Positions 36,625 through 59,585 of a stretch of 61,302 nt of DNA are shown one piece after another. The position numbers and the translations under genes are program-made. The DNA is from Planctomycetales bacterium (GTDB taxonomy: Bacteria > Planctomycetota > Planctomycetia > Pirellulales > Pirellulaceae), in contig JAGQPS010000002.1 in the NCBI GenBank assembly GCA_020426595.1, positions 1 to 61,302 of the forward strand, given 5' to 3'. Under the pieces are notes generated by a model that was given only the letters and a program-made list of their open reading frames with translations, ran no database searches and was not told where the DNA came from. Position 1 is the first letter of the stretch. Every line of letters starts with the position of its first letter.

Positions 36625-38850
36625 CTACAAACTGAGATCGAACGTCTCTTCAATCGTTCTCAACGCTCTCGTTGCCAATGAAACTGGCTCGGAAAGAAAC
36701 CTTGCTTCGCCTTGTGCGCCCACGTGCAAGTGATGCACCTGTTCGGGAACCGATACGACGACTTGGTAAATCACGGACGCGGTTTCTTCCGTTCCATCGT
36801 GAAGCGTCGTCGTGGGCAATGTCCCCTGATACTTGGTCGAGAGTGAGTTAGGCACTTGTGTCGTGTAGTGACGTGAAATGGAGAGGATTTCTCCGACATG
36901 GACAGCGTCCGGCAGGTGCCTAAATTTCATTCGTAGAGTTTCTCCTTCGGCCAACTGATCGCGATGTCGTTGGTCGACGTAGATCACCGCGACGAACTCG
37001 GACCGATTCGGGGCCACACTTCCCAGTTCCGTCCCTCGCTGAAGAAACGCTCCGATGTTTCCTCGCTCAAGCGGCTGTCCGATCCATTGCGAGAGAGTCT
37101 TGTGTTGAGCGTCCCTCGGTCGTTCGTCGCGCACGGTAGGGGGCGCGATGAAGTGACCGTCACTCGGAGACTTGACGACGAGTTCATCCAACCTCCGTCG
37201 CATATCATCTCGTTGAGCCCGCAAACTGGCAGCGCGCCCTTCCGCTAGTTCGGCTCCGACTCCATCCAAATCCCTTCGTTTCTGTGCTGCCTCCGACTCC
37301 GCCACGGAAAGTCGGCCTTCCAGTTCGGCGAGTTGCAGTTCCAAGGCCGGATCGACGAGTCGAGCAATGACTTGCCCCGCATCGACTGGCCCGCCATCAA
37401 CAACGCCAACGAACTCCAACCGTCCCGCCGTGGGCAACATCAAACGCTGGGATCCCTTCGATTCAATGACGAATGGTGAAGTCGAGAACCACGGGAACGG
37501 CACGGCGAAGACAAGCACGAAGGTTACGGCCAAAACACTCAGAGTGACACCAACCTTTTTCATGTCGAGCCTCTCATTTCGTTCGATCCAGAGGGTTTTG
37601 TATCCCTGCCAGAGAGCGCCACCAACCATTTTGCCAATCGAGACAACGCCGACAATCAGCCCTAGGTTCTGCAAGCCGTAGGGCTGTAGCCAACGAAACA
37701 GGAAGACGGTGATCCCCACGATCAAAACCAACTGATACACCATCGATCCAAGGGAATAGACGATGAACCAGGTTCGCCGTCCGCGCGGCATGAAGGGGTC
37801 CTCCTTCGGCTCGATACCGAAGCAGTGCCAGTAAATCGCCGACTGAAGGAACTTCGTGGCCTTGGTCCGCAGGTTGGGAATCTCGAGGAAGTCCGCCAAT
37901 GCGTAGTATCCGTCGAACTTCATGAGCGGATTGGCGTTGACCAAGACGGTGCTCATCGAAGTGACAAAGATCACGTTGAGGGCCAAGTGGTTTAACACGC
38001 CCGGCGTCGTCCTCCACCAAATAAAAATCGCGATCGCGGAAAGCAGCAATTCCACGACGACACCCGCGAAGGCGACCGCAATCCGCTTCCACTTGTTTTC
38101 AAACATCCATGAATCGGAAACATCGCAGTACAGGGTTGGCGAGAAAACGAGCACCATGATCCCCATGTCATGGCACTCGCCGCCGTAGTATTTGCAGGCG
38201 AGTCCATGGCCGAATTCGTGAAGGACCTTGATGAGTGCCAGGAGACACCACAGATAGAGAACATTCGGCCCCGAGAAGAACTGTTGAAACGTGGGCAGCC
38301 GAGATTGGAATAGATCAAAATTCGCGGCGACGCTTAGCCAAGCCACGGCAACGAGAAATGCGAAAAAGCACAATACGACCGGCTTAAAGATCCATCCGAT
38401 CCAGGGCACCATCCGATCGAGCATTCGATCGGGATCCCATCCGGGAAGTCGGATCGAAAGAAAGTTGGCCACGGTTTGCCGTGCCTGTCGCCACCACTCC
38501 TTGCGAGATTTGATAACGAGTGCCACTCCGCGTCCCGATCGATCGGTGATCAGCAGATTCTTGGCATGTAAGTCGCCAACCAACGTCTGGATGTCCTTGA
38601 TAGCTACCCATGTCCATGGGTACTTCGCGACCATGGCATCCCGCAGCACGGAGAGACTGTGGGTCCCATCAAGCTGCTGAAGCAAGTAGTACTGCTCATC
38701 CTCCAGACGATAGTACTTCAGCGCTATGGGGTCCTTGCAAACCCAATAGCCCTTTCCCTCGAACCCAATCCGACGAAAGACCAAATCTTGTCGCGGACGA
38801 AAAGGAACAGGACGCTGGCTCGCGGATTGAAAAGCCGCCTCTTGGCTCAT
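36625..38850 (-). CDS. Tri-domain protein: PqqD-like (RRE-like) N-terminus, M50/site-2-protease-like membrane metalloprotease and C-terminal HlyD-type adaptor
   Basis: A strong SD site (aaggagag) precedes the ATG. The N-terminus YYRLEDEQYYLLQQLDGTHSLSVLRDAMVAKYPW...LVGDLHAKNLLI follows the PqqD pattern. The polytopic region has HEFGH and a downstream NANPLMKFDGYY (NxxPxxxxDG). After a last TM helix comes a HlyD-like hairpin and coiled coil (GQVIARLVDPALELQLAELEGRL...VVKSPSDGHFI). Confidence 0.85.
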   Translation of the reverse strand: MSQEAAFQSASQRPVPFRPRQDLVFRRIGFEGKGYWVCKDPIALKYYRLEDEQYYLLQQLDGTHSLSVLRDAMVAKYPWTWVAIKDIQTLVGDLHAKNLLITDRSGRGVALVIKSRKEWWRQARQTVANFLSIRLPGWDPDRMLDRMVPWIGWIFKPVVLCFFAFLVAVAWLSVAANFDLFQSRLPTFQQFFSGPNVLYLWCLLALIKVLHEFGHGLACKYYGGECHDMGIMVLVFSPTLYCDVSDSWMFENKWKRIAVAFAGVVVELLLSAIAIFIWWRTTPGVLNHLALNVIFVTSMSTVLVNANPLMKFDGYYALADFLEIPNLRTKATKFLQSAIYWHCFGIEPKEDPFMPRGRRTWFIVYSLGSMVYQLVLIVGITVFLFRWLQPYGLQNLGLIVGVVSIGKMVGGALWQGYKTLWIERNERLDMKKVGVTLSVLAVTFVLVFAVPFPWFSTSPFVIESKGSQRLMLPTAGRLEFVGVVDGGPVDAGQVIARLVDPALELQLAELEGRLSVAESEAAQKRRDLDGVGAELAEGRAASLRAQRDDMRRRLDELVVKSPSDGHFIAPPTVRDERPRDAQHKTLSQWIGQPLERGNIGAFLQRGTELGSVAPNRSEFVAVIYVDQRHRDQLAEGETLRMKFRHLPDAVHVGEILSISRHYTTQVPNSLSTKYQGTLPTTTLHDGTEETASVIYQVVVSVPEQVHHLHVGAQGEARFLSEPVSLATRALRTIEETFDLSL

Positions 38851-39104
38851 CCGGCCTCTCCTTGTCGGACACTAGTGGATCGCGTCTCGTTCGGCCATCT
38901 CGGCATCGAGGTACAATGTGCGAGGCAAGCCGTTTCCGCAAGAGTTGTTCGGCCAAAACACCCGCGCGGGGCGTTTCGTGCGTTCCCGGTCTAACTTGTC
39001 CGATTTGCCGCCCAAGCCCTTGACGAATGCTTCTCCGCTTATTGAGATTGTCGCGTTCGCTCCCATCGACTGTTTAAGTTGGAGATTGGGCCATTGACGG
39101 GGAA

Positions 39105-41102
39105 GTGGAAAGCCGGCTTGATCGGCTAACATCACGTATCGACGACTTGCAGGGGCGCGCCGGGGATGTCCGGGTTTTCCTTGGCGCCTTTTTGCCGATA
39201 GTCGTCGAGGAGACCCGAGCCGACGCGGGCGTCGTTTGGCGTCCTGTGTCGGCGACACAGTGGGCGGCCGTCGTCGACGTGGGACTCGATCAAACCTTGT
39301 TGCCGGAGTCCGCCGAGGCGATTGAAGACAATAATCGACGGCTCGTGGCCTGCTTCGAGAGTGGCGAAGCTTCATTGGGCCTCGATGCCTCGGAAACGGA
39401 CTCGCCTCTCGGTCGCTATTGGGTTGTCGTTTGCCCGTTGTTTATCCAACGCCAACCGGCGGGCTGCCTGCAGCTTTTCTTTGATCGAACGGCCGACAAG
39501 GAACCGGAACTTGCCTTGGAACTCGCCGAGCATGCCGCGGGTTTGGCTAGTCTCGAACTGGAACGTTCAACGCGAGCTCCCGACTCTGGCGCCATTTCCA
39601 GCGCGACGCCAACACGCGAATCGATCGGCGAGCTGTCCCTGAAATTACATCGAAGCCTGAGCCTCGAATTGACTTGTGCCGTTGGAGCGAACGACGGTCG
39701 CCTGTTCCTCGACGCGGACCGTGTTTCGGTGTTTGTGTCTCGCGGCAAGTCGACTCGCGCGTTGGCCATAAGCGGTCAAGAAAAGGTGAATCAACATGCC
39801 GTGTTGGTCCGCAAGCTAACCGCTGTCGCGCGACTCGTGGCCGATCGAAAGTCACCGATGACGTATCTCGGGGCGAGTGAAGCGCTCGATGCGGAGGCTC
39901 AGGAAGTCGTCGCGGAATTGATCGACGAATCGGGCTTGAGGAATCTGGTCGCGATCCCGCTCCTCGCCGAGGATGAAGTGACGCTTGATGAATCGTCACT
40001 GCGTCGACGCCGCCGGTCTGGCTCGAGTCCGGCGTTGGTGGGTGTTCTGTTGGCGGAATGGTCGGGTGACGCGCGGCGTCCGACTCACCAATTGGCCAAC
40101 CTCGAGACCCTCGGCCAACATTTAGCTAGTTCGATCCACGGTTCACTGCATTTTCGCCGTGTACTTTTATTGGAGACTCGATATCGAATTGGTCTCGCCT
40201 GGGAGTGGTTCCATGGCCGACGCCTACAATTGGCCGCACTTATTCTGACAGCGGTCATCGGTGTTCTTTTGGCATTGGTCCTGGTTCCATGGACCTATCG
40301 TGTGAAGGCGGATGGTCGCGTGCTCCCAGCGACTCGCGCCAACGTATTCGCTCCCGCCGACGGCTACTTGAGATCCGCGAACCTGTCGGTTGCTTCCAAC
40401 CAGCGAGTTCACCAGGGCGATGTGTTGCTGCGTTTGGAGAGTGATTCCCTCGAGCAAGAACTTCATCGGGTCGACGGGGAACGGGCGGAATTGGAGAGTC
40501 GTGCCCTCGCATTACAAGCTCAGATCCACGCCACGGTTCTCGACCGGGAAGCCAATCAATTGCGACTCGATCTCGCGCAGACGCAGAGTCAATTGCAGTC
40601 CGTCGAAACGTCGCTCGGCTTATTGAGAAAACAGCTTGACGACTTGACGATCACCGCTCCGATCGATGGAGTCGTGATTACTTTTCAGGTCGAGAAGTGG
40701 TTGACCGATCGGCCTGTGAATCGAGGGGAATTGCTGCTGGAGATCATGGACGATTCAGGCCCTTGGCACTTGGAAGTGCGAGTTCCCGCGAAACGCATCG
40801 AGCATGTGGAAACGATGCGCGATCAGCTGGGAGAATCGTCGCCGCTGACGGCGGAGTTCTTTCTCGTGGCGGCCCCGGAGCAAGTTTTGGAGGGGCCGGT
40901 CTCGCGGATTTCTTCACGAGTTGAAAGCACGGGACAAGAAGGTCCAACTATCGAGATGATCGTGGAGCTCAACGGCATTGAATTCGCTCGACCCAAAATC
41001 GGAGCCGAGGCGCGGTGTCGTATTCCCTGCGGCAAGCAGCCGCTCGGGTACGTCCTCTTTGGAGACGTGGTCGACTATTTGCGAACTCGCCTCTGGTTCT
41101 AG
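39105..41102 (+). CDS. GAF-GAF-TM-HlyD-like protein
   Basis: GTG start, divergent from 36625..38850. It has two GAF-like modules, one TM helix (LAALILTAVIGVLLALVLVPW), a HlyD hairpin (APADGYLRSANLSVASNQRVHQGDVLLRLES), a coiled coil and a beta-barrel. It is collinear with 16358..18637. Confidence 0.8.
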   Translation: MESRLDRLTSRIDDLQGRAGDVRVFLGAFLPIVVEETRADAGVVWRPVSATQWAAVVDVGLDQTLLPESAEAIEDNNRRLVACFESGEASLGLDASETDSPLGRYWVVVCPLFIQRQPAGCLQLFFDRTADKEPELALELAEHAAGLASLELERSTRAPDSGAISSATPTRESIGELSLKLHRSLSLELTCAVGANDGRLFLDADRVSVFVSRGKSTRALAISGQEKVNQHAVLVRKLTAVARLVADRKSPMTYLGASEALDAEAQEVVAELIDESGLRNLVAIPLLAEDEVTLDESSLRRRRRSGSSPALVGVLLAEWSGDARRPTHQLANLETLGQHLASSIHGSLHFRRVLLLETRYRIGLAWEWFHGRRLQLAALILTAVIGVLLALVLVPWTYRVKADGRVLPATRANVFAPADGYLRSANLSVASNQRVHQGDVLLRLESDSLEQELHRVDGERAELESRALALQAQIHATVLDREANQLRLDLAQTQSQLQSVETSLGLLRKQLDDLTITAPIDGVVITFQVEKWLTDRPVNRGELLLEIMDDSGPWHLEVRVPAKRIEHVETMRDQLGESSPLTAEFFLVAAPEQVLEGPVSRISSRVESTGQEGPTIEMIVELNGIEFARPKIGAEARCRIPCGKQPLGYVLFGDVVDYLRTRLWF

Positions 41103-41365
41103 GGTTTCGCCTGGGCCAGCGAAGTTCCTCGGCCCTTTCTGGCGGCCTTGCTCGAGGAATGTCCGCCCCGAGCCCGTGGGCTGGTCGAGTCTTTTCTTGT
41201 GCTCGTTGTGTCCGCGTTCGCTTCGAGCTTCCGCTCCAAAGCAAAACGTCCTCGACCATTTCGTTGACGATTACCAAGGCGGCTCCTCTTGGGAACCCTA
41301 GTTCGCATGGTCACGCGGGAATCCCTTGAAGTGAGTGGGCGGATGCCGGCACAAGGAAATAAGGC

Positions 41366-44300
41366 ATGAACCGACTCCGAATTGACGACCTCCACGTCGT
41401 ATCTCCGGTTAATGAGTCCGAGCAGGATCAGAGTTTTGGAGCCGGCTTGCGGCGACGGCGGCCCAAGGAATTTCGTGGCGGTGCCGTCGAGGTGTTGGAA
41501 GCCAAGCAGATGCTATCCGCCACGGCGGCCGTAGTGCTCAAGAATGGGGTTTTGTCGGTCCGAGGCACGGAGCGAAATGATCGTATCGTCGTGGCGGAGA
41601 AGCGAGGGCTGATTCGTGTGTCGATCAATGGCCGCTCCGTCAATATTTCAAATGCCGGAAAGGCCGCGAAGGCGTCCGCGGTGAAGCGAGTCGAGGTGTC
41701 GGGTCTGGGAGGAAATGACCGAATTGATGTCCGAACTCTCCGGCGATCGGCGGTGTTGCGTGGTGGTGCCGGTAATGACACGTTGCTAGGCGGCGGTCGT
41801 GCTGATCGCCTCGATGGCGGAAGTGGCAATGACACACTCCGAGGCTACGCCGGAAACGATCGAATACTCGGCGGATCTGGCAACGACTCGATCGACGGTG
41901 GTTCGGGAAACGATTATCTCGACGGACAGTCGGGCAACGACCGCATCAAGGGCGGTACCGGAAACGACGTCTTGCAGGGCGGCAGCGGCACGGATTCGCT
42001 CTACGGAGGCTCGGGAAATGATCGACTCACCGGTGGCGACGGCGCGGATCGTCTGTTCGGTGAAGCGGGCGACGATCGGCTCTGGGGCGACAAGCAAGAT
42101 ACGGTTCTCGACGACCGTTCGGGGAGTGATCGAGTCTCGATAGCCAACTCGGCACCCACCGACATACTCCTGAGCGCGCGACGGCTGACCGAGGGTGTTA
42201 ACGGTGCCGAGATCGGGCGAATTACGGTGGTCGACGCGGATGTGAACGACCAACATACGCTGACCGTTTCCGACAGCCGCTTTGAAGTTTTCAACGGCGT
42301 ACTCAAGCTCAAGGACAACGTAGCGATCGATTTCGAGACGGAACCGTCGGTGCAAATCTCGATTACGGCGAAGGATTCAAGCCAAGCCACCAAGACATCC
42401 GTGTTTTCGATCGAGGTAATCGATCTCAACGAGCTACCTGTCATCGGCAATCTGAAAACACTGGAGATCGGGCGTGATTCGGCGAGCACGCTTGTTAACC
42501 TCAGCATTGTCGATCCGGACGGAGATGCCTTTGAGGTTCATGCCTCGTCGAGCAGTGATCAAGTCTCCGCGACTATCGTCAATAATGCGCTCAAACTCAC
42601 GCCTGCCCTAGGATTTGTTGGAACATCGACGATCACGGTTCAAGTCAAGGACAAGACATCGGGCAAGTCCCTCGAGAAGGAGTTCCAACTTGTCGTTCGT
42701 GGCACGCGAGCCGAATTGGTAAATGGCGTCTTGGCGATTCGCGGATCCAATCAGGCCGACCACATTCGACTCAACGCGGAAGGCGCTTCCACTTCCGGCA
42801 AACTCGTCGTTCTGGATGGCGAGGCCGTGATTGGCACTTTCGAGGCCAAGAACGTTCGAGCGATTCAAGTCGAAGCGGGCGCCGGAGATGACATCATCGA
42901 CCTGACACAGGCCGTGATGAGTGCTTGGGTCCATGGCGGAAGTGGCAACGACACCATCCATGGTGGTTCAGGAGCCGATCACCTGTTTGGCTCGACGGGA
43001 GTCGACAAGATCTACGGCAATTCCGGCGCGGATGTGATCTACGGAGGCGACGATCAGTTCAACGATAAGGGAGAGTTGGTCGGAGTGGTGGACGGAGGCA
43101 CGGATGTTGACTTCCTTTCCGAAGGTACCGGCCGCAAGCTAGTCGCCTCAACCGATGATCGAGACATCGAAGCCATGGACTTCGAGGAGCGATCCTACTT
43201 CGATCTGTTGCACCAGTTTCGAGATGCCCATGGCTTTGTAATCTCCCAGACCGGTGACGGAATCGACCAGCGTGGCGACGCCATGCTTTTCACCGGACTG
43301 GCGGCGACGTTGGCTGCCCAGCGTGGTGATTCCGGTGCGGTGCTCGAACTGCTCAAGACCTTGAAAGACGAGCCGTTTGTTGACGAACTTGGGCGAACTC
43401 GCCTCGTGAGACATCCCGAGGTTTGGGATTACGTCAATGAGAACGGAGTTTATGTGCGGGAACGCCATGCCCCCGTGACCAAGGACGGCGTTGTCGGTGT
43501 TATCTCGGCCGTCTACTACGCATTCAAGGCTGGCGGCATGACGGAAGAGGTCCGTTCGTTGGCCAAGGAGGTCGCGACAAAGTACATCGATTATCTAATC
43601 GCCAATAACTGGATGACGATCGACCGGTACCCAGAGCATTACTGGGAAACTCGAGAACTCCCATCCGACGAAAACGACCCCGACAGTGACAAGAAGTCGT
43701 ACTTCTCGAACGTCTTTGGCGAGGGTGGTACCCGGGTCATGTACAAGGGAGTCGACGGTTACGCGTTGATGCCCAACGACCGATACGCGCTGAAGAACGC
43801 CGCGGCGGAAATGGGAATCGCCACCCAAGGCTGGTCGGTATGGGGTGGCCTAGGGGTGACGTTGGGCAAGGTCCTGGGTGATACCACCGCCGACTTTATC
43901 AGCGGTGTCGCCGACGATCTCGGCGATTGGGCAAGCGAGCGCGTGGGTGTATTCCTCAAGAGTATCTCGTTTGACGAGAGCTATAGCTTTCATGTGATTC
44001 CGGGACTGGATTGGACCCTCGTCAAGGGCGACGTCAAGCTCGAGATCTCGTCAGCCAACCGTGCGGGTATCGCCAACCTCGTGGGCGACGCCATTCGGTC
44101 CACGATCAAGACTCTCTTGGGTTCCACCATCGACAATGGCACGGAACTGGTCGCCCTGGCTAAGCAACTCTCGGATCTCCAAGGTCGTATCGTCGACCAG
44201 TTGTTGGATTCACTCCCCTCGTGGCTGCAAGGTGATAAGTGGCGTCCCTTGGTTGGCGACGCGATCCAGCAAGTCCTACCTTGGCTCAGTGGTGATGTAT

Positions 44301-45781: not shown

Positions 45782-45876
45782 TTGTTGTCGATCCCCAGTC
45801 TTGTTCGTCGCCTAAGTCGACCTCCATCAGCTTCGCTGAATCGTTATCCCATAAGACTCTCGAGGAGTTCCTAGCC

Positions 45877-46578: not shown

Positions 46579-49500
46579 ATGAGTCGTCTCACTATCACTG
46601 ATCTCGTCATTTCATCGACTCCGAGTCTCGAGGATCAAGACCAGCAATTCGGAGCCGGTATTCGTCGGCGACGTTTGCGGGAATTCCAGTCAGCGACGGC
46701 GGAAGTGCTCGAGTCGAAGCAGATGCTCTCGGCGACGGCGACCGCGGTGTTCAAGAACGGCGTCCTGACGGTGAATGGCACGAGCCGCAGCGAGAAGATC
46801 GCGGTTACCGAAAACAAAGGCCAACTCCGAGTCCAAGTCAACGGCAAGAGCCTGCGGATCGCGGGGGCCGGCAGCCAGGTCGCCGCGACTCGAGTGAAAC
46901 AAGTGGCGGTCAACGGCAAGGCCGGCAACGATCGCATCGATGTTTCGTCCGTCAATCGAGTAACTAGGCTCGATGGCGGAGCGGGCAATGACACGATCCT
47001 TGGCGGCAAGAAAGGTGACACGATTTTCGGTGGATCGGGCAATGATCGACTCTACGGCCGAGCCGGCAATGACCGGATTTTCGGTGGGTCGGGCAACGAC
47101 CTCCTCGAGGGTGGATCGGGCAATGACTTTCTCGACGGACAATCGGGAAAGGACCGCATTAAGGGTGGCAGCGGGAACGATACGCTCAAGGGTGGAACGG
47201 AAAACGATCAGTTGATCGGCAACGAGGGGTCCGACCGACTGTATGGCGAATCGGGTGATGACGTTTTGATCGGAGGCGACTCCACCGACGTGTTGTATGG
47301 AGGTGCTGGGAACGATGAGTACATGGTCGGGAACGATGGCGACACAAGCGTCATTCGGGACGACCAGAAGGTTGAGGCCAATGATGGGAGCATCGAGAAA
47401 TTCATCAGCAAGCCGAAGGTAAACGTCAACTCTGTCAACACTCGGCGACCGACCCTGTTGGTAATCACACAAGGAGCGGCCACGACCAATGTTGGTGGGG
47501 CTGGCACGGGACGCCATGTGTATCCGTGGCAAGAGACCTTGGCTCAAGCGATGGAGGACGACTTGCGCAAGGCGGGCTCGCAAGTCCACACCATGGTCGT
47601 GAGCTGGAATTCCCTCGCTACGAATACGACTCAAACTGAGCGAGTCGCCAACCACATCAAGGAGTTTCTCGCCGCTCGATCCCAGCAGTGGGATGTTGTA
47701 TTGGTCGGACATAGCCGAGGAGCGATCTTCAACCAAGAGATTGCGGGACTTCTGGGCGATCCCAAGAACATGAATGTGTTGCAACACGTCATGATCGACC
47801 CGACGGCCGCGACTTCGATGGGCGATCAATATCCTCAGGGAACACCTAGGAATGTCGATCGAGCCATTGTCTACGACGATGGCTATCAGTTTCTTCCATT
47901 CGCGGCTGTTCGTGATGGTGAGCGAGTTGCCGGAGCGGAGTATCAACGAGTATCGCTGCCGGATACCGGGTATTACGATACCGCGGCGAGTCACAATCGA
48001 ATCGCTAAGTGGTATGCCCAAGGCGCTTACCATGCGGATCTTGACTGGCTGCTCTCGCAGAAGTCGACCGGACGGTATGCCGGCGAACAGACGAGTGACA
48101 ATGGTCGCGAATATGTCAGTGTCTCTGGCCCGGCCAAGGAACAGAACCTGATCGACGTCGGCTTCGATCCCAATCGCAACGGCGACATGCATGGTTACAT
48201 CAGCGTGCTGGGCGTCGGTGGAGTCGACATCAAGATCGGCAAGAGTGGGGTGCAAGCCGGAGGCGGCGTGACTTTTGGTGGATCAGCGGGAGTCGGCCTT
48301 TCCCAGGATGGCGTTTCGATCCATGTCACCGGTCCCGGTGCCGGGCCGCTCAATTACGGCTACGGGGTTGTCATCACCAAGGACGAGGCCACGGTCAACG
48401 CGGATGTCGGACCGCTCAATATCACGCTCAGCACCAAGGGTGGATCGATCTATGTCGGCGGAAAGAGAATCACGTTCAACAAGACGGTCGACAAGGCGGG
48501 CAAGTGGGTCGTAAACCAAATCCTGGCTTCGCGCGAACGCATCTCGACCACGCTGCAGAACTTCGAGCGCGTTCGGATCGAGAAGTTCGATCAAGCCGGA
48601 AAGCTCGTGGCCAAAGGCTGGAAGAATGGCTCGCAATGGGTGTCCCAGTCACTCAACAGCGCTGGCAAGGTATTGCTTCAGTGGACCTACCACGGCGGGT
48701 ATGGTTCGGCTCTCAAGATCTTGTCGCAATACGATGCTCAAGGAGCATTGTTGGCCACCCAGGAATTCGCCACGAATGGCGTTCGCTTGATCAACAAGTA
48801 CATCAACTCAAGCGGTCAGTGGGTCTCGCAGAAGTTCGATTCGGCCGGAAAGATGGTGAGCGAGTGGATTTATCACGGCAAACTCGGCTCTCAGCTCAAG
48901 CAATGGCGGGCCTGGACCTCGGCCGGCTTATCGAATTGGAAGGAATACGCAACCAATGGAGTGATGGTCGCCGAACGGTTCCTCGACAGTGCAGGGAAGT
49001 GGATCTCCAAGTCGTTCGACACCGCTGGCAAGCTGCTCAATCAGTGGAGCTACTTTGGCGGTTACGGGTCGGCGCTCCAGCAATGGAAATCGTGGAACGC
49101 CGCCGGAACATTCACCGGCATGCGGGAGTACCTCTCCAACGGAGTCAAGACTCTTGATCGTTGGTTGAACTCGAGTGGCAACTGGATCTCGCAGAAATTC
49201 AACTCGACTGGTCGGCTCGTAAATGAATGGATGTACCACGGCGGATACGGCTCCGTTCTGAAGCAATACAAAGCCTGGAGCGCGTCGGGGACGTTCACCA
49301 ACTGGTCTGAGTACTCGACCAACGGTGTCAAGACAGCCACTCGCTGGCTCGATTCAAGGGGACGGTGGATTTCCCAACGCCTTAACAGCGCGGGCAAGGT
49401 CCTCAATCAATGGCTCTACTTCGGAGGCTATGGCTCGAAGCTCCAGGAATGGGCCGAATGGTCGAGCGGCGGCAAGTTGCTCAATCTCGAGCGGTTCGCG

Positions 49501-49695: not shown

Positions 49696-49707
49696 GGAGC
49701 CTTGACT

Positions 49708-49740
49708 CGGCCACCCGGTTGATCGCCGGGTGGCCGTTTT
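49708..49740 (+). terminator. Probable Rho-independent terminator or attenuator after RTX gene 2
   Basis: cggccacccgg-ttgatcg-ccgggtggccg forms an 11-bp GC-rich stem, followed by tttt cctggtttt. It lies 13 nt after the stop at 49695. Confidence 0.65.
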
Positions 49741-50122: not shown

Positions 50123-50133
50123 ATCGTGAGTCG

Positions 50134-52086: not shown

Positions 52087-52128
52087 AATGATTGATCCGT
52101 GTCCCATCACATTCCCAAGGTGTTTTCC

Positions 52129-52908
52129 ATGTCCGAGGTTCATGCATCCACGGTATTAGGGACAGTCAACGGCTCGCCCGTGAAATGGACCACGTTCCTC
52201 AGCGCGCTGAAGTGCGAGGGAGCCTGGAGTGCCAGCGTGGCGGCCTTGCTTCGATACGTTTTCATCGCCGAGCTCGCTTCTCGCCATCAAATAGCGATCG
52301 CCGACTCGGAGTTGCAGGCGGCGGCGGACCAATTTCGGGCGCGACGAGGCTTGCACAAGGCAAGCGATACCTATCAGTGGATCGCGCAAGAGTTGATCGA
52401 GGAGGATGAATTTGCTCGCCTTGTCGAGCATGAGTTGATCGTCGACAAGTTGAAGCGAGTCTTCTCGGACGAGGCGGTCCAGAACAAGTTCACCGCGGAA
52501 CGGAACCGTTTTGATCGGGCAAGACTGGCGCAAATCGTGGTCGACTCGAAGGGCCTGGCGGACGAGCTGCTAACTCGATTGGTCGAGGATGGCGACGACT
52601 TCTCAACGCTCGCCCGCCAACATTCGTTGGATCAGGACTCGAAGGACAACGGCGGATTTCTCGGCATCTTGAACCGAACCGATATGTCTTCGGAAGTCGC
52701 CGACACCGTATTCGCCAGTCAACCAGGAAACACGCTCGGCCCCTTTCGCATCGCCGGCGCCTACCACCTCGTGAAGACTCTCGAGCTACTCCCGGCGAGT
52801 CTCGATGAGGCGACTAGTGAGTTACTCCGCAATGAGATGCTCGACGAGGCGATCACACTGGCGATCGCGGCCGCGGATATCGAATTGAGGTTTGATATCG
52901 AGGACTAA
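52129..52908 (+). CDS. PpiC/parvulin-type peptidyl-prolyl cis-trans isomerase (SurA/PrsA-like)
   Basis: An N-terminal chaperone-like helical part is followed by ARLAQIVVDSKGLADELLTRLVEDGDDFSTLARQHSLDQDSKDNGGFLGIL...GNTLGPFRIAGAYHLVK. The ORF is open from the GTG at 52099. Confidence 0.85.
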   Translation: MSEVHASTVLGTVNGSPVKWTTFLSALKCEGAWSASVAALLRYVFIAELASRHQIAIADSELQAAADQFRARRGLHKASDTYQWIAQELIEEDEFARLVEHELIVDKLKRVFSDEAVQNKFTAERNRFDRARLAQIVVDSKGLADELLTRLVEDGDDFSTLARQHSLDQDSKDNGGFLGILNRTDMSSEVADTVFASQPGNTLGPFRIAGAYHLVKTLELLPASLDEATSELLRNEMLDEAITLAIAAADIELRFDIED

Positions 52909-53007
52909 TCGTGGCTCGCTGGGGCGAGCAAGGTGTTGCATGGATTAGAGCGAGGTACGGGAATTCCGCTCCGGCCATCGCGTCACGCGGGGAGGTCGAT
53001 ACCTTTC

Positions 53008-54912
53008 ATGTTGGACCGTGTCATCAACCCCTACCGCATTCAGCGATGGTGGCGGCTCGCCGATCGCGCGATTCGACTCTCCGATTCATGGCAACGGCTC
53101 TCCTTGGATGATCTTGCGGTTCAAGCGAGGCAACTGTCGGGACGGATTCGGTCCGGGAGTCCGGTTCGAGAACATCGGGTGGAGTTAGGGGCCGTCGTGC
53201 GGGAGGCGGCTCGTCGTTTGCTCGGTACTCCGCACTACCATGTGCAGCTCGTGGGCGGATTTGCCATTCTCGAAGGCAACATCGCAGAGATGCAGACCGG
53301 CGAGGGTAAGACGCTGACGGCGATCCTGCCCGCGTTCGCGCGTGCGTCGGCGGCCCATGGATGTCACGTGCTGACCTCGAACGATTATCTTGCCGAAAGA
53401 GACGCGGCTAAGCTCCGTCCCGTGTACGAACTGTTGGGGCAGTCCGTCGGCTGCGTCATCGCGGAGATGGAGCCGGAGCAACGCCGAGCCGCGTATCGAT
53501 GCGATGTGACGTATAGCACCGCCAAGGAAGTTGGGTTCGATTTTCTACGCGACCGAATTGCACGGGGCGTGAGCACGACGGCTCATGAGATCCCTCGAGT
53601 AACCCTGATGCGTTCCGATCAAGAGCCGCTTCAGCGAGGACACTACTTCGCCTTGGTTGACGAAGCGGACGCCATTCTGATTGACGAGGCCACCACGCCG
53701 CTCATCATTTCGGCCCCCGAGTCTCCGGATCCGCCGACCGTCTCGTTGTACCGGTGGGCCAGCCGGTTCTGTCAAACTCTCGATCCAACGGCCGACTTTG
53801 ACTTTGATGCGAAACGCCGACAAGTGAGACTCGGAGAGTCGGGCTGCCGCCTCGCACTTCTCGCACCCAAGCCGGCGATCCTGAATCGAATCGAAACCGA
53901 ACGCATCTACACCCAGGTCGAAAACGCCCTCTGCGCGCGGCTTGCTTACCTTCGCGACAAGGAATACGTCGTCGTGGATGGAAAAGTGGTCATTGTCGAT
54001 GAGTCCACGGGCCGAATCATGGACGGTCGAAAATGGCAAGACGGTATTCACCAGGCGATCGAGGCGAAGGAACATCTTCCGATCAGCGGAAGCACCGGTA
54101 GCGCCGCGCAAATCGCGTCCCAGGCGTACTTCAAGCTATACACGCATCTTGGCGGAATGACGGGGACGGCCGCGTCGGCGCGACGCGAACTCAAGAAGAC
54201 GTATGAGCTGCGCGTCGCGTCTGTCCCACCTCATCGCCGGAATCAGCGAAGAGGATTTCGTCCTCGCGTTTTTGTCACTGCCAATGCCAAGTGGCGCGCG
54301 ATCGCTCAAGAAGTTCAGGCTTACGTACGGGGAGGGCGTCCCGTCCTCGTAGGTACGCCCTCGGTGGAATCCTCCGAATGCCTGGGCGCCGTGCTTGCGG
54401 AACTGGGAATTACCGCCTCGATCTTGAATGCCAAGTTTCATCGTCAGGAAGCCGAGATCATCGCTCGCGCCGGACAGCCTGGATCGGTGACGATCGCCAC
54501 GAACATGGCCGGACGAGGCACGGACATCTTGCTTGAAGGACAAGTCAAGTCGGCGGGTGGACTGCACGTCATCGCGACCGAGATTCACAGCTCTCCTCGG
54601 ATCGATCGGCAACTCGTTGGACGAGCGGGACGCCAAGGTGACCCAGGGTCGTTTCGGTTTTTCATGTCGCTTGACGACGAACTGCTTCGAGTGCTACCCC
54701 AGTCTCGCCGTAAGTTGCTGCAACGCTGGGCCGCGTGGATGGCTATCCGAGGCGAATTACCCAGCAGCTTCGCGAGACTCTTCCGGGCCACGCAGTCTGG
54801 CCTGGAGCGGCGTGGTCGTAGCCAACGAGGTCGAATGCTGAAGTTCGAGCAGCAAAGAAAGGAACGCTACGACCTTCTTTGTCTTGATCCCTACCTCGAG
54901 TACGTGTCGTAA
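53008..54912 (+). CDS. SecA-like ATPase with NBD1, PPXD and NBD2, truncated at the start of the helical scaffold domain
   Basis: SecA-type N-terminus MLDRVINPYRIQRWW...LSLDDLAVQARQL, Walker A MQTGEGKTL and Walker B LVDEADAILIDEATTPLIIS. The PPXD core is VIVDESTGRIMDGRKWQDGIHQAIEAKE. NBD2 motifs are GRPVLVGTPSVESSE, LNAKFHRQEAEIIARAGQPGSVTIATNMAGRGTDI and RIDRQLVGRAGRQGDPGSFRFFMSLDDELL. Only ~70 aa follow, giving ~634 aa in total. Confidence 0.85.
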   Translation: MLDRVINPYRIQRWWRLADRAIRLSDSWQRLSLDDLAVQARQLSGRIRSGSPVREHRVELGAVVREAARRLLGTPHYHVQLVGGFAILEGNIAEMQTGEGKTLTAILPAFARASAAHGCHVLTSNDYLAERDAAKLRPVYELLGQSVGCVIAEMEPEQRRAAYRCDVTYSTAKEVGFDFLRDRIARGVSTTAHEIPRVTLMRSDQEPLQRGHYFALVDEADAILIDEATTPLIISAPESPDPPTVSLYRWASRFCQTLDPTADFDFDAKRRQVRLGESGCRLALLAPKPAILNRIETERIYTQVENALCARLAYLRDKEYVVVDGKVVIVDESTGRIMDGRKWQDGIHQAIEAKEHLPISGSTGSAAQIASQAYFKLYTHLGGMTGTAASARRELKKTYELRVASVPPHRRNQRRGFRPRVFVTANAKWRAIAQEVQAYVRGGRPVLVGTPSVESSECLGAVLAELGITASILNAKFHRQEAEIIARAGQPGSVTIATNMAGRGTDILLEGQVKSAGGLHVIATEIHSSPRIDRQLVGRAGRQGDPGSFRFFMSLDDELLRVLPQSRRKLLQRWAAWMAIRGELPSSFARLFRATQSGLERRGRSQRGRMLKFEQQRKERYDLLCLDPYLEYVS

Positions 54913-55044
54913 GCGCCCCGTGGTCAAAACGCACCGCATGCCGAATAAGTACCGCCGTGGAGATCCGTTTATCTCGTCGCGTCGAGGCGAGGGCCTTGAT
55001 ATCACCTGCGGCGGTGGGTACGCGGTCGCCCCCATTCACCGAGA

Positions 55045-55680
55045 TCAGTGATTCACTGGCTGGGATGATCGTCGGCTGGAAACAGGTAACCACTCGCTGG
55101 GGTGAGGGACTGGCGTGAGCACACTTTGGCGAATGGGAGGCACGCAATTGCCCGGTCGTTCCATTCCCAATTGGTAATGGAGCCGTGTCGGCGGATCCTG
55201 CAGCATGCGATAGGGTAGCAAGAGCGTATCCGCCACGAATCGGCCACCGCTAACGAAGGGCTGCACCAAGGGACGCCGTGTTAGACCGTATCGCTCTAGA
55301 GCGACATCCTCGCAGTAATTCGTATTCTGTATTACCGCTGGAGCCTCCCACGTGGTGACGGCTCCAACACCGCGACTAGAAGATGTCGGGGTGGGATGCG
55401 ACTCTCGACCAATCATGCCCGCATTTTCAAGGTGAGCCGGGAGTTCAGGTGCGATGCGAAAGTCTATTTCGCTAAGTGGTTTCTCGTCTTGAAAGCCACG
55501 AGCGCGGTCCACCGTTGCTCCGGAAGTCCGCAAGGATCTGATGACGAGCGGTTCCTGGGCGGATGAAACTTGGAGGGACGAAACTTGGGCGAGCAGACAC
55601 AGTATCATTCCCAGTTTGCTCAATCGGCCCGCCACCTGAATCAAATCCCGCTTGATCACTCGACTGGTGGTCGCATTCAT
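55045..55680 (-). CDS. Hypothetical secreted protein
   Basis: Signal peptide-like LGMILCLLAQVSSLQVSSAQEP. The conserved-looking core is NTNYCEDVALERYGLTRRPLVQPFVSGGRFVADTLLLPYRML. Confidence 0.55.
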   Translation of the reverse strand: MNATTSRVIKRDLIQVAGRLSKLGMILCLLAQVSSLQVSSAQEPLVIRSLRTSGATVDRARGFQDEKPLSEIDFRIAPELPAHLENAGMIGRESHPTPTSSSRGVGAVTTWEAPAVIQNTNYCEDVALERYGLTRRPLVQPFVSGGRFVADTLLLPYRMLQDPPTRLHYQLGMERPGNCVPPIRQSVLTPVPHPSEWLPVSSRRSSQPVNH

Positions 55681-55864
55681 GATTACCTACCCCAAGCATG
55701 CGAAGGCCGTGGCGAAGCCAGACGAGTTCGGTATCGGACCGAGTTGCTCTTGAGGCTGAGTGATTCTTGAGTAGCTGGCTCCCACCGCCGCTAGCTCTTT
55801 CGGCATTGGTTCCTGGCGTTGGCGGCTCTGCCATCCAACCTCGGCAGGGTACCGAGATCTGCCG

Positions 55865-57928
55865 TTGACGCGATTTATTGCCGCGTCTACAAGCCCAGCG
55901 GAGACTTTGTCGCGGTTAGGGAGAATCTCAAATCGGGGCTGGTGCGTGGCAGGTATTCGGACATTTCTCGTTTTAGTCACTTCGACGATTGCCTTGGCTG
56001 GCTGCAACCTCTGGCGAACCGGGACCGAACATTCGGGGCCGATTCGAGAGCTGGAGTGGGCTCAATCGCTGGCGATTGAATATCCCGATGCCTTGACCGA
56101 AGCGGCGGACGAGCAAGAACTTCCCTCGAGGCCGCGTAGTGTTGCTGGCGAGACGCCCGACACGTTTCACGACATCACCTTATCCGCGGCCATTGAATTC
56201 GCGCTTCAAAACAGCGAGGTCTTGCGAGATCTGGGTGGCCGAATATTGGTCAGTCCAGACTCGGCGGTCACGCGACTGGATCCTGCCATTCGTGAGAGCG
56301 ATCCGCTGTTTGGAGTCGAGGGAGCCCTCAGTCAGTTCGATGCTCAATTCACAAGTAGCCTCTTCAGCAGCTACAACGACCGGGGACTAAACAATGTGCT
56401 TACGAGCGGAGGAGCTCGTGAACTGGCGCAGGACACGCTGGAATTCCAAACGGAAATCAGCAAGCTCGCGGCCACCGGCACTCGTTTCAGCCTTCGCAAC
56501 GTTACCGGACATGACCGCAGCAACCAGAGCGGCAATCTCTTTCCGGCCGCATGGGACGTGCAATACGAGGCGACCGCGCGGCAACCGTTGTTGCAGGGTG
56601 CGGGAGTTACGTTCAATCGGATCGCTGGACCATCCGCTCGACCTGGTTTCAATTTCTCGAATGGCGTTCTGATCGCGCGTATTAACACCGACGTTTCGCT
56701 CGCGGATTTCGAGGCCAGTTTGCTGAGCTTCCTGAGCGACATCGAGGAAGCGTATTGGGACCTCTACTTCGCCTACCGCGACCTAGACGCCAAGATTGCG
56801 GCGCGCGACAGCGCGCTGGAAACATGGCGGCGAGTAAAGGCGGCCGCTGAGGCAAGTTTGGAGGGGGGCGAGGCATATCAAGAGGCGCAGGCTCGGGCCC
56901 AATATCTGCAATTCCAACAGGCGGTTCACGATGCGCTCAACGGAACGCGTGAAGCTGGATCGGCCAACGGGGTTTACCTCACCGAGCGTCGACTTCGCCG
57001 CATGCTAGGCATGGTGGCGACCGACGATGTCCTGTTACGTCCCTCGGAGGAGCCCACTCGGGCGGAAGTGCGAGTCGATTGGTTTAGCAGCCTAAACCAA
57101 GCACTTGCTCAAAGAAATGAACTGCGACGCTCGGCATGGAATATCGAGAAAAGCCAATTGGAGTTGCTCGCCGCCAAGAACTTTACCTTGCCACGTCTTG
57201 ACGCGATCGGCACCTATCGCTGGCGGGGATTTGGCCAAGAACTCTCCGGCCCAGGATCGACTCGATTCGCGAGTGCTTATGACGATTTGGCCAGTGGCGA
57301 TCACCAAGAGTGGCAGCTTGGCATGGAGCTTAGCATGCCGTTTGGCCAACGACAGGCATGGGCCGGAGTACGCAATGCCGAGCTCAAACTGTCACGAGCA
57401 CGAGCCATTCACCGAGAGCTCGAGCACCAAGTGGCTCACGACCTGAGCGACGCGGTCGCCGAAGTCGAACGGGCTCACCTGGCTCTCGTCGTTCAAGGCG
57501 ATCAGCTACGGGCGGCCCGCGAACGTCGAGATGCAACGACCGCGGCATACCAGACTGATAAGGTGCGGCTCGACCTCCTGCTCGATGCCCAGAGGTCGCT
57601 CGCGGACGTCGAATCGACTTATTACCGCTCGCTCGCCGGCTATGCCAAAGCCCTCAAGGACTTCCACGTCTCACAGGGGACGCTCTTAACTTACAACCAA
57701 GTTTTTCTAGAGGAGGGCCCGTCGCCGATCAAAGCCTACTCCGACGCGGCGAGGTTCCGGGAGAAGTGGCCGTTGGTTCCGCCCGATCAACGAATCATCG
57801 AGCCAATGCCGATTTCACGAGGTGCGTTAGTCGAGGAGATTACTTTCGTGGAAACCGCATCAGCCGCGAACAACCCAACCCTCGAGGAAGCGAACGGACT
57901 CCCTTCGCACGGCGAGGCGAACGATTAG
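55865..57928 (+). CDS. TolC-family outer membrane efflux protein (probable lipoprotein)
   Basis: Lipobox TSTIALAGC. Two OEP-type repeats have the typical pattern (LSAAIEFALQNSEVL...; LNQALAQRNELRRSAWNIEKSQLELLAAK...). The TTG start at 55865 is uncertain. Confidence 0.85.
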   Translation: MTRFIAASTSPAETLSRLGRISNRGWCVAGIRTFLVLVTSTIALAGCNLWRTGTEHSGPIRELEWAQSLAIEYPDALTEAADEQELPSRPRSVAGETPDTFHDITLSAAIEFALQNSEVLRDLGGRILVSPDSAVTRLDPAIRESDPLFGVEGALSQFDAQFTSSLFSSYNDRGLNNVLTSGGARELAQDTLEFQTEISKLAATGTRFSLRNVTGHDRSNQSGNLFPAAWDVQYEATARQPLLQGAGVTFNRIAGPSARPGFNFSNGVLIARINTDVSLADFEASLLSFLSDIEEAYWDLYFAYRDLDAKIAARDSALETWRRVKAAAEASLEGGEAYQEAQARAQYLQFQQAVHDALNGTREAGSANGVYLTERRLRRMLGMVATDDVLLRPSEEPTRAEVRVDWFSSLNQALAQRNELRRSAWNIEKSQLELLAAKNFTLPRLDAIGTYRWRGFGQELSGPGSTRFASAYDDLASGDHQEWQLGMELSMPFGQRQAWAGVRNAELKLSRARAIHRELEHQVAHDLSDAVAEVERAHLALVVQGDQLRAARERRDATTAAYQTDKVRLDLLLDAQRSLADVESTYYRSLAGYAKALKDFHVSQGTLLTYNQVFLEEGPSPIKAYSDAARFREKWPLVPPDQRIIEPMPISRGALVEEITFVETASAANNPTLEEANGLPSHGEAND

Positions 57929-58833
57929 CGAGATTCGGGGATGGCATCGAAATGAAGTGTTCCAACTTCTCCCGGCTTCACCCGCAGCTCTCGGTTGTCT
58001 AGTTCGGCCCATACTCGCACGAGGTTCCGAACTGGCTGTACCTCGGGATCGATGAAGACGATTTTCCCCGTCAACTCGATTGGCTCGTTCCGAGCGTCAC
58101 TGGGGCGAAATACGACCTGTTGTTGCGGAGTTAGCGACCGGGCGAATGCCGCGTTCACATAAATCTCCGCCCTGACGACATCCAAGCGTATGAGACGCAC
58201 GACGGGGTCGCCCGGATTAACCCACTCGGCATTCTCGTGATGCCGTTTGACGACGATGCCGGTGAACGGCGCCGTTATTCGACGTCGAGCCACGCGTACC
58301 TGGGCAAGATTGGCCTCGCGCTCCTTGAGTTGAGCGGTGAGTTCCGCCTCGTCATGATCGCGTTGAGCCTGCTCCAGCGACAAGCGGGATTTCTCCAACT
58401 CGAGCTGAAGCTTCTCCAGTTCCGTGCGGGACACCGTGTTGGTGAACAGCTCGTTCGCATAATGGGACATCCGAAGCTGGGAATCGTTGACTTCAATGGT
58501 CTTTTGGGCCAGTCGCTGATCCACGTCGCTCGATGCCTTGATAATTGCAATTTGGTGGCCCAGCAACGCCACCTCGAGTTCGGCGTCGGCTAAATCGCTA
58601 TCGAGCCGGGCAATCAAATCTCCCTTTTGTATCGTCTCTCCTGGCTCGAATTTAATCTCCTCGATCACGCCCGCTTCGCGCGCCGGAACATCGATATCGG
58701 CGACCGGAAACAACTGAGCCTGATAGGAAGTTTCTCCCTCTTGAGCGCGAGCCGTCACCGCTTGCCCTACGGCCCAGACGTAACACCACATCGTTCCCAT
58801 CGCGATAACCGCGTATTGTGTTCCACGAGACAT
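57925..58833 (-). CDS. HlyD-family periplasmic adaptor
   Basis: One TM helix (YAVIAMGTMWCYVWAVGQAV), a lipoyl-like hairpin (AREAGVIEEIKFEPGETIQKGDLIARLD), a coiled coil, then APFTGIVVKRHHENAEWVNPGDPVVRL. Its stop overlaps the TolC stop by 4 bp (convergent). The ORF is open to 58923. Confidence 0.85.
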   Translation of the reverse strand: MSRGTQYAVIAMGTMWCYVWAVGQAVTARAQEGETSYQAQLFPVADIDVPAREAGVIEEIKFEPGETIQKGDLIARLDSDLADAELEVALLGHQIAIIKASSDVDQRLAQKTIEVNDSQLRMSHYANELFTNTVSRTELEKLQLELEKSRLSLEQAQRDHDEAELTAQLKEREANLAQVRVARRRITAPFTGIVVKRHHENAEWVNPGDPVVRLIRLDVVRAEIYVNAAFARSLTPQQQVVFRPSDARNEPIELTGKIVFIDPEVQPVRNLVRVWAELDNRELRVKPGEVGTLHFDAIPESR

Positions 58834-59585
58834 CTTATGTCCTCGATTGATTCCCAGACGGTGATTGTTCCAAACCGTTTTCCAACTCGTTCGCTCACCA
58901 CGAGAAGACAGTACACCCTCCATCGCCTTACTCCTGAAAAACAGCCACGATAGGAAGCGTCTTGGCCATGTTCCGATTCAAGGGCAACAAGCCGGCATCC
59001 GGTGAGACGCCTCTCGATATGGCACTGGCGATAACGGTAACCGCAGTTTGCTAGCAGCCGAGAATTGGCAAGCTGATTGTATTCACGGACACTCGCTGAA
59101 TTCCGCATCGACCGGTCTAGAACGCCGAAATTTGTTGGGTCACGGCGTATCCTCTCCGCCATTCAGCTCATCGATTGTAGGACCACTTCCACAGCCCAAC
59201 GGGTGGCGAATGGCCTGTCCGTTCAGCCTTGACTCGTTGGGGCGAATGCCGACAATTTCGACTCGTTGGCTCGACAAGGATGCCGGTCATTCCCTCGCGA
59301 ATGACGTGGGAATTCCTAGCCTAGAAACTCGCTCGACTCGAACGAAACGGCTCATGCAAGTGCCTTTCATTCCCGGAGAGCGAGGCCTGGTCGGCTCATC
59401 TATCGGAGCGGACCACGGGTTTGGATTCCGACTGCCAACATGCGTCGGTTCGAGTTGCTCCGCCATGTCGGAGTGGCTCGATCGTCGTGGAGATCGATTG
59501 CGACCGAGGCGACTGAGTCGTCTTGCTCGCAGGGACTCGACATCATTGATTTCAAGCGATCGAATTCGGCAAGGAGGCCGATGAG

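Follow-up and report, generated by a model that had tools for sequence, protein, structure and literature searches.

An ABC-less, SecA2-associated type-I-like locus with candidate RTX cargos in a planctomycete: an elaborated copy of a computationally predicted system

What would drive an export apparatus that has adaptors, an outer-membrane factor and candidate substrates, but no ATP-binding cassette (ABC) protein? This is the question raised by an island of genes on contig JAGQPS010000002.1 of a Planctomycetales bacterium (assembly GCA_020426595.1), of which 61,302 nucleotides, here called the window, were analysed. The island encodes three HlyD-type adaptors, one fused to an M50 membrane protease (M50-HlyD), one fused to GAF domains (GAF-HlyD) and one free, together with a TolC-family lipoprotein, a free C39 peptidase linked to domains resembling those that bind cyclic nucleotide monophosphates (cNMP-C39), a parvulin-type peptidyl-prolyl isomerase (PPIase), a short SecA (SecA2) and two large RTX proteins. 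The original prediction for this DNA took it either for an export and processing machine energised differently, by the SecA-like motor or by proton-motive force, or for one that borrows an ABC exporter encoded elsewhere, and saw in it a combination matching no described system. The finding is real, and a SecA-like motor in place of the ABC protein is still the leading hypothesis; the claim of novelty was wrong for the core, which had already been predicted computationally in 2015 with the same hypothesis of energisation. What is added here is an accessory operon, a RiPP (peptide synthesized on the ribosome and modified after translation) recognition element (RRE), candidate substrates and their leader. 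The analysis covers the 61 kb window of this one genome and a set of related loci, and functions are assigned from sequence and predicted structure.

A published core without an ABC transporter

The absence of an ABC exporter from the window held up. A six-frame motif scan of the entire 61 kb found neither a Walker-A nor an LSGGQ motif in any real open reading frame (ORF), apart from the GEGKT of SecA2 at 53299, which is the sole P-loop in a real ORF and leaves the SecA-like motor as the only NTPase of the island. The identical scan, run over some 0.65 Mb from about 34 related loci, returned zero ABC proteins, and hence no exporter of this kind that regularly accompanies these genes nearby; it did pick up the ABC proteins of the positive control loci L029 and L031.

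An ABC-less locus of this type is on record. Kamneva, Poudel and Ward (PLoS One 2015; PMC4452313) defined computationally a conserved locus of a secondary, short SecA and type-I-related proteins, which brings together Peptidase_M50/HlyD, GAF/HlyD and HlyD/Biotin_lipoyl families, sometimes an OEP protein, and no ABC transporter, as for example in META1p2399-2402 of Methylobacterium extorquens. STRING and neighbourhood statistics tied SecA2 to the three HlyD proteins, and it was proposed that SecA is the ATPase and the M50 protein the inner-membrane pore (PMC4452313). The window contains a secondary SecA_DEAD protein without the wing and scaffold C-domain, Peptidase_M50 and HlyD in one protein, a GAF protein carrying HlyD/biotin-lipoyl domains, and a separate HlyD/Biotin_lipoyl adaptor, in a locus free of ABC genes. 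The island is thus securely a full, elaborated copy of the SecA2-associated ABC-less type-I-like locus of 2015, the mechanism of which we infer further below. Beyond the published description lie the cNMP-C39/PPIase/SecA2 accessory operon, the PqqD/RRE domain on M50-HlyD, candidate cargos encoded within the locus and bearing a two-part N-terminal leader, and the small acidic ORFs: the 2015 paper makes no mention of C39, cNMP, rotamase, PqqD, RTX proteins or any substrate (PMC4452313), and the locus is likewise missing from a comprehensive Chemical Reviews 2021 article on tripartite and type I systems.

All island components noted in the original prediction were verified by ORF listing and by profile scans with Pfam and NCBIfam, which matched the claimed anatomy from M50-HlyD to the last HlyD (Table 1). 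The top NCBIfam match of M50-HlyD, over residues 34-408, is daptide_HExxH (NF041824, 1.3e-60), with a score of 205 against a cut-off of 300. Among 52 orthologues, M50 is found in 52 and HlyD in 50; the PqqD-like start claimed for the protein is seen in 24 of the 52 and was not detected on the window protein itself. The HExxH residues H211, E212 and H215 and the N305..P308..D313-G314 motif are invariant across these 52 orthologues, and the protein has at least five transmembrane helices. The AlphaFold2 model (predicted local distance difference test, pLDDT, 83) shows a C-terminal adaptor hairpin of two 25-residue helices, and in a fold search this C-terminal part matched MexA, MacA, ZneB, AcrA and EmrA with E values of about 1e-10 to 1e-11. 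On these grounds M50-HlyD is predicted to be a PqqD/RRE-like cytoplasmic domain followed by a polytopic M50 (site-2-type) metalloprotease and a periplasmic HlyD adaptor with an alpha-hairpin. GAF-HlyD, encoded by a gene divergent from that of M50-HlyD, consists of two GAF domains, one transmembrane helix (376-394) and HlyD, and has 36% full-length identity to its orthologue in Lignipirellula cremea. A membrane-fusion protein (MFP) and a TolC-family outer-membrane factor (OMF) are both present, as in classical type I systems.

SecA2 is truncated, as the original prediction had it. It carries only DEAD, preprotein cross-linking (PPXD) and P-loop domains and aligns to residues 9-610 of the 841 of Bacillus subtilis SecA, so as to comprise nucleotide-binding domains 1 and 2 (NBD1, NBD2), the PPXD between them and one scaffold helix; set against the domain map published for SecA, it is without wing domain, two-helix finger and C-terminal tail. 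Its AlphaFold2 model (pLDDT 78) ends with a 38-residue helix (586-623) and a short C-terminal helix, and a fold search with it gave SecA chains as the best matches, among them the Escherichia coli truncation SecA-N68 (target-normalised TM-score 0.63). The family ends in a conserved GLDPYLE (MGLDPYLELTE in full; its Asp, Pro and Glu are the same in all 40 sequences), by which SecA2 may dock onto a partner protein. In the window protein the C-terminus (54880-54909) reads CLDPYLEYVS. A profile scan of all island ORFs found no SecY-like or Asp-like protein, and the island therefore does not show the SecA2/SecY2 pairing of an accessory Sec system.

How far does this arrangement extend beyond one genome? 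An alignment of M50-HlyD scanned over one genome per species gave 24 loci, which were mapped with phmmer against the island proteins. The short SecA family (about 620-650 amino acids, aa) is widespread in Planctomycetota, with 52-58% identity to the window protein, and so is the M50-HlyD family, with 40-45%. The core is syntenic across the 24 genome loci and further contigs: nearly all of the 24 have an HlyD of about 320 aa immediately upstream of M50-HlyD, GAF-HlyD adjoins the core in about a third of them, TolC homologues do so in L005, L012, L028 and L037, and SecA2 in L020, L023, L034 and Lignipirellula. In Lignipirellula cremea (CP036433), cNMP-C39, PPIase, SecA2, GAF-HlyD, M50-HlyD and HlyD are contiguous, with 26-55% identity to the window proteins; that six genes have stayed together at such low identity argues for a functional linkage of the C39-PPIase-SecA2 operon with the core.

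Candidate cargos, processing genes and layout

Both RTX proteins named as cargos in the original prediction are present; the cargo role itself is a reading of them and not an observation, and they are called candidate cargos here. Their N-termini are near-identical over 60 residues (M.RL.I.DL........Q.DQ.FGAG.RRRR..EF.....EVLE.KQMLSAT). In cargo 1, residues 1-27 make up a putative leader of the double-glycine type ending in FGAG, and residues 28-53 an arginine-rich stretch followed by EVLEAKQMLSA, which by eye resembles the Planc_extracel motif; cargo 2 starts with the same two parts. Neither protein has a hydrophobic Sec-type signal peptide or an RTX block near its C-terminus. The RTX nonapeptides of cargo 1 lie at residues 133-231 and 524-559 of 1471, in company with Big_9 and a large uncharacterised C-terminal domain, and those of cargo 2 at residues 133-249 of 1038, ahead of YwqK/MORN-type C-terminal repeats. 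An N-terminal signal together with N-proximal RTX repeats implies export in the N-to-C direction. At residues of about 340-395 (47600-47760), cargo 2 has a lipase-like alpha/beta-hydrolase region with a GHSRG motif and weak matches to Abhydrolase_6, Lipase_3 and LIDHydrolase (E 0.01-0.09), and could be a lipase or esterase destined for secretion.

The same leader recurs beside the Lignipirellula locus, at the start (MAKIQINNLPDVESISLEELDEAFGAGLRLRKRKQFHAAPAEVLEVRQMLSAT) of the 1889-aa protein WP_145053021.1 (L038:13726-19395, minus strand). This protein is labelled by NCBI as a "YwqK family antitoxin" and has no Pfam match, RTX repeats included; its YwqK/MORN-like repeats resemble the C-terminal half of cargo 2, and its C-terminus looks lysozyme-like by eye, a hint that the cargo may be an effector or a toxin. 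When 1.84 billion representative proteins were searched with a leader profile, this retrieved only cargo 2, the Lignipirellula protein (2.6e-11) and a metagenomic 361-aa fragment, P0246 (about 1e-3), once two further matches had been rejected as repetitive false positives. With cleavage placed after FGA, the leaders of P0246 and Lignipirellula are hydrophobic at -15, -12 and -7 and have Ser at -11, Glu at -8 and Gly-Ala at -2/-1, while position -4 is Ile in P0246 and only Ala in Lignipirellula; Gly at -2 and Ala at -1 are found in all four leaders. Measured by the classical double-glycine pattern (hydrophobic residues at -4, -7, -12 and -15, then GG, GA or GS at -2/-1), P0246 agrees well and the Lignipirellula protein for the most part.

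The second part of the leader touches on a wider family. PF07595 (consensus RRLxxExLExRxLLA) is regarded as a planctomycete-specific cell-surface signal whose export machinery is not known (Studholme 2004, as cited in PMC8567305), and in Tuwongella immobilis 8 of the ten longest proteins carry the Planctomycete extracellular signal (PMC8567305). At loci without C39, large neighbours have PF07595-type N-termini and no double-glycine part (the 4820-aa protein of L034, the RTX proteins of L013, L014, L016 and L026, and a protein of L019), scoring 24.6 bits in L019 against a cut-off of 25.5 and about 11 bits in L034 and L013. Locus L034 has the order GAF-HlyD, SecA2, HlyD, M50-HlyD, and the gene for its 4820-aa protein (L034:15730-21953) starts 470 bp downstream of M50-HlyD; the N-terminus of this protein reads MVKFDWLYQLKQSI...RHRRRLRR...LEPRILLSA. 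The RTX proteins of L013, L014, L016 and L026 begin with M.FNNWLSSVQ.RI in common, a start that suggests a second conserved leader subtype. Automatic calls of immediate neighbours were unreliable at these loci, owing to spurious antisense ORFs in GC-rich DNA.

The free C39 domain keeps, in alignment with PCAT1 (4RY2), all of the Gln, Cys, His and Asp positions that we take to be catalytic. The C39-like domain of HlyB, by comparison, has lost its catalytic Cys. The domain forms the C-terminal end of a soluble, cytoplasmic protein (about 610 aa) that has cNMP-binding-like repeats and no ABC fusion, 26% identical over its full length to its Lignipirellula orthologue. A word-indexed homologue search with cNMP-C39 returned the query itself only; a metagenome scan with the two-sequence C39 alignment gave three C39-domain matches only, and the motif scan flags an ABC protein at two of these three loci. 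The PPIase has a SurA/PrsA-like N-terminal region without a signal peptide and is TIGR04500-like (105 bits against a cut-off of 180), a family whose member MirC is an essential partner protein in the maturation of graspetides, a class of RiPPs (PMC13097080).

The small acidic ORFs of the original prediction were also called by a second gene caller on a public contig with the same DNA, and contain 25-27% Asp+Glu. One lies 3' of each cargo gene, and another is found 3' of the Lignipirellula leader gene. As conserved precursors they were rejected: compared with one another and with the Lignipirellula ORF the two gave no significant similarity, and they have no conserved Gly-Gly site and no family matches, and they are conserved in position and composition only. 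The terminator between the two groups of genes was confirmed as a hairpin with a T-run, a terminator-like element that would set the cargo genes apart from the processing and motor operon. Within that operon the probable gene starts lie at about 50257 for cNMP-C39 (609 aa), 52129 for PPIase and 53008 for SecA2 (634 aa), each inside the frame listed in Table 1.

Table 1. Features of the island and the paralogous adaptor pair of the same window.
Feature	Positions	Strand	Evidence and remarks
M50-HlyD, 741 aa	36625-38850	-	Peptidase_M50 + HlyD_3 (Pfam)
GAF-HlyD, 665 aa	39105-41102	+	GAF_3, GAF, HlyD_3, HlyD_D23, Biotin_lipoyl_2
Candidate cargo 1 (RTX1), 1471 aa	41366-45781	+	HemolysinCabind 1.6e-41 + Big_9
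Small acidic proline-rich ORF, 67 aa	45877-46080	+	3' of cargo 1; also called by independent gene caller
Candidate cargo 2 (RTX2), 1038 aa	46579-49695	+	HemolysinCabind 2.5e-54
Terminator-like hairpin	49708-49736	+	12-bp stem (10 G-C pairs), then T-run, directly past RTX2 stop codon
Small acidic ORF, 83 aa	49871-50122	+	Leads downstream operon; also called by independent gene caller
cNMP-C39	50134-52086	+	cNMP_binding 3e-17; C-terminal Peptidase_C39 1.1e-29
Parvulin-type PPIase	52099-52908	+	PpiC rotamase
SecA2, short "wingless"	52933-54912	+	SecA_DEAD, SecA_PP_bind, P-loop_SecA only
Hypothetical protein, 211 aa	55045-55680	-	Signal-peptide-like N-terminus
TolC-family outer-membrane factor, lipoprotein	55865-57928	+	OEP domain, lipobox LAGC
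HlyD adaptor, 332 aa	57925-58923	-	HlyD/RND_mfp family 8.8e-35; signal-peptide-like N-terminus
Paralogous pair, GAF-HlyD (792 aa) + HlyD (366 aa)	15238-18736	-	Outside island

The 211-aa hypothetical protein was counted as a secreted member of the island in the original prediction. Its N-terminus does look like a signal peptide; it has no family match and no counterpart at the Lignipirellula locus, and it probably lies outside the system. A PADLOC scan gave zero defence-system matches.

The paralogous GAF-HlyD and HlyD pair lies 18 kb upstream of the island and has no adjoining M50-HlyD. A 498-aa ORF (12128-13624) was considered as a diverged M50 partner of this second pair and rejected, as it shows no similarity. 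The 792-aa type of GAF-HlyD is the subtype that stands beside HlyD and M50-HlyD in L019, L022 and L027.

The G+C content falls from about 61-62% to about 57-59% beyond about 36 kb of the window, and the Lignipirellula locus is bordered by resolvase, recombinase and DDE transposase genes (L038:1-2999, L002:2014-6887). The drop in G+C and the flanking mobility genes are compatible with the horizontal mobility proposed for the locus (PMC4452313). Window genes neighbouring the island carry PSD1, PSCyt, DUF1501 and DUF1598 domains, which mark the DNA as planctomycete. Upstream of the island are genes typical of these bacteria, one for a PSCyt1/PSCyt2/PSD1 protein with a DUF1501 gene as its partner, plus a sulfatase gene (24503-29348 and 20861-23065), which seem unrelated to it.

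Proposed mechanism and competing explanations

From the sequences and models together, we lean slightly towards reading the island as an envelope-spanning, ABC-less exporter that would be powered by SecA2 and would move its cargo N-terminus first. The three adaptors (M50-fused, GAF-GAF-fused and free) would build a periplasmic tunnel onto the TolC-like lipoprotein, the M50 membrane domain would provide the passage through the inner membrane, and SecA2, with ATPase motor and preprotein clamp retained, would feed the unfolded cargo, N-terminus first, into this conduit. The two RTX proteins of the island would be the cargos. The first, double-glycine-type part of the leader would be removed by the free C39 peptidase; docking of the second, arginine-rich ExLExRxMLSA part would fall to the PqqD/RRE domain of M50-HlyD, and M50 itself may cleave there. 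Outside the cell, the N-proximal RTX repeats would fold with calcium and act as a ratchet, while in the cytoplasm the SurA-like parvulin may hold the cargo export-competent. The GAF and cNMP-binding domains could gate the machine through a second messenger.

A broader version of this proposal is a tentative one, which we hold to be possible at best. It would make the apparatus a distinct one-step, two-membrane, N-first pathway and the exporter of surface proteins with the Planctomycete extracellular signal, with the RRE as receptor, M50 as both signal peptidase and pore, SecA2 as motor, and, in a rare sub-variant, a cNMP-regulated C39 that would remove a pro-leader and so license export.

A good deal weighs against a SecA2-powered exporter. 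Literature searches found no experimental follow-up of the 2015 locus, and no component function, interaction or secretion event is demonstrated in the literature searched. We know of no precedent for an M50 protease as a protein-conducting pore, and SecA2 lacks the two-helix finger, the element thought to engage the channel. The window leaders keep G-2/A-1 and an acidic -8 but are degenerate at -4 and -7 and fit the double-glycine pattern poorly, and the N-termini of the window RTX proteins do not match PF07595 even at E <=10. Planc_extracel-motif proteins are about as numerous within 10 kb of the system as their genome-wide frequency would predict and, as PF07595 proteins are common, mere proximity is weak evidence. 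Co-conservation, which the original prediction had asked of these genes, holds for the core, with HlyD and M50-HlyD adjacent in nearly all loci and GAF-HlyD, TolC and SecA2 joining them in subsets, but not for the accessory genes, as C39 and PPIase co-occur with the system in two genomes only, that of the window and that of Lignipirellula cremea.

The remaining objections speak at the same time for the rival that survives best, which we nevertheless consider rather unlikely: separate modules that only happen to be neighbours. The HlyD triad and TolC would then be a device for efflux, envelope stress or signalling (for example GAF-controlled regulated intramembrane proteolysis) that acts on small molecules or peptides; export of the RTX proteins would go another way, through a classical ABC type I system elsewhere or a general Planc_extracel pathway, and SecA2 would be an accessory Sec ATPase working with SecYEG. 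In keeping with this, 4 of the nine contexts examined (Fuerstiella and three other contigs) have SecA2 without linkage to the adaptor genes, most core loci have no neighbouring SecA2, cargo or TolC, and the second GAF-HlyD/HlyD pair of the window is likewise without a cargo. Planc_extracel proteins are numerous per genome, 52 in one of them (PMC8567305), and the RTX proteins of the L013 type have C-terminus-proximal RTX repeats too, and could be exported by a classical type I system. Set against these points is the same rare leader, found in about three lineages among the 1.84 billion representative proteins, and twice beside the same six-gene set that has diverged to 26-55% identity. The free C39 moreover co-occurs exactly with cargos bearing the FGAG leader, the window RTX proteins are without the C-terminal RTX block, and the linkage statistics of 2015 tie SecA2 to the three HlyD proteins (PMC4452313).

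Could the island instead be a bacteriocin- or RiPP-like cluster, in which the RRE-M50 protein, C39 and the TIGR04500-like PPIase process short precursors, perhaps the acidic ORFs, for export by HlyD and TolC, the RTX proteins being bystanders, immunity factors or adhesion factors? Several resemblances point that way: the N-terminal 400 residues of M50-HlyD are nearest to the daptide intramembrane metalloprotease, the PPIase recalls the family of the graspetide partner MirC, C39 is the classical leader peptidase of bacteriocins, and a small ORF follows each cargo gene, in Lignipirellula as well. Yet both NCBIfam scores (205 against 300, 105 against 180) are under their cut-offs, profile scans found no modifying enzyme in the island (ATP-grasp, radical SAM, dehydratase or similar), the small ORFs are dissimilar to one another and lack a Gly-Gly site, and the putative double-glycine leader sits on the large proteins and not on them, which makes this reading quite improbable. 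Just as poor are the prospects of a classical type I system whose ABC part, an HlyB-like or peptidase-containing exporter with the free C39 as its split-off peptidase domain, is borrowed from elsewhere: the visible genome is limited to 61 kb and OMF genes are often unlinked from type I operons (PMC4452313), but no ABC gene lies within about 10 kb at the roughly 34 related loci from many lineages or appears in the 2015 survey, the cargo signal and RTX repeats are N-terminal and not C-terminal, and three adaptors, two of them fused to membrane or cytoplasmic modules, are ill-suited to docking on HlyB.

Comparison with known systems

The island shares with the locus of 2015 the wingless SecA, the M50/HlyD, GAF/HlyD and HlyD/Biotin_lipoyl proteins, an optional OEP protein, the absence of ABC genes and the phylum, and it has in addition the free cNMP-C39, the parvulin PPIase, PqqD/RRE on M50, the leader-bearing candidate cargos and the small acidic ORFs. 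The prediction of 2015 was hard to test because it came with no substrate and no signal. The island and its Lignipirellula counterpart now supply candidate substrates, a short, conserved and very rare leader for which a cleavage site is predicted, a free peptidase to match it and a receptor-like RRE, and these first candidate substrates and leader make the hypothesis of a SecA-powered, ABC-less exporter directly testable.

With the classical type I system (HlyB-HlyD-TolC) it has in common the HlyD/MFP adaptors with an alpha-hairpin, the TolC-family factor and RTX proteins as (here candidate) substrates; it differs in having no ABC protein, three adaptors instead of one, and a SecA-like ATPase. 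The substrates are mirror images of each other as well: those of type I systems have a C-terminal signal and leave C-terminus first, whereas the signal and the RTX repeats of the island proteins are N-terminal or N-proximal. The peptidase-containing ABC transporters (PCATs: PCAT1, ComA, LahT, CvaB) share with the island the Gln, Cys, His and Asp of C39; their substrates have a double-glycine-type leader, cut at GG, GA or GS, of which the island's leaders are putative counterparts. In the island, though, C39 is fused to cNMP-binding-like domains in place of an ABC membrane domain and ATPase, and the candidate cargos are proteins of 1000-1900 aa instead of peptides, with a second signal motif past the leader. 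The RRE-M50 leader peptidases of RiPP pathways (NF041824 of daptides, YydH/LiaK) show the same succession of a PqqD-like domain and an M50 HExxH membrane protease, but the window protein scores under the family cut-off, is fused to HlyD and has no RiPP-modifying enzymes nearby.

Giant proteins of Omnitrophota embed wingless SecA domains and, in at least one case, C39-like domains (bioRxiv 10.1101/2023.11.21.568195). They likewise combine SecA DEAD and PPXD domains without scaffold and wing, and very large surface proteins with C39-like peptidases, within the same PVC (Planctomycetes-Verrucomicrobia-Chlamydiae) superphylum; there the domains are found inside the giant protein, whereas the island has them as separate genes, in partnership with HlyD and TolC. 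The island would also offer a candidate machine for the surface-protein signal specific to planctomycetes, a link that is possible only.

The closest likeness in adaptor number is TriABC-OpmH, in which two different adaptors serve one pump, driven by a resistance-nodulation-division (RND) transporter, for the efflux of small molecules. The island may similarly hold more than one adaptor paralogue per tripartite assembly, and is set apart from it by the RND transporter and the small molecules of the pump. If SecA2 does drive export through adaptors and TolC without an ABC, RND or major facilitator superfamily (MFS) transporter, this would be a new way of powering a tripartite machine of the envelope and would put the SecA motor to a novel use away from SecYEG.

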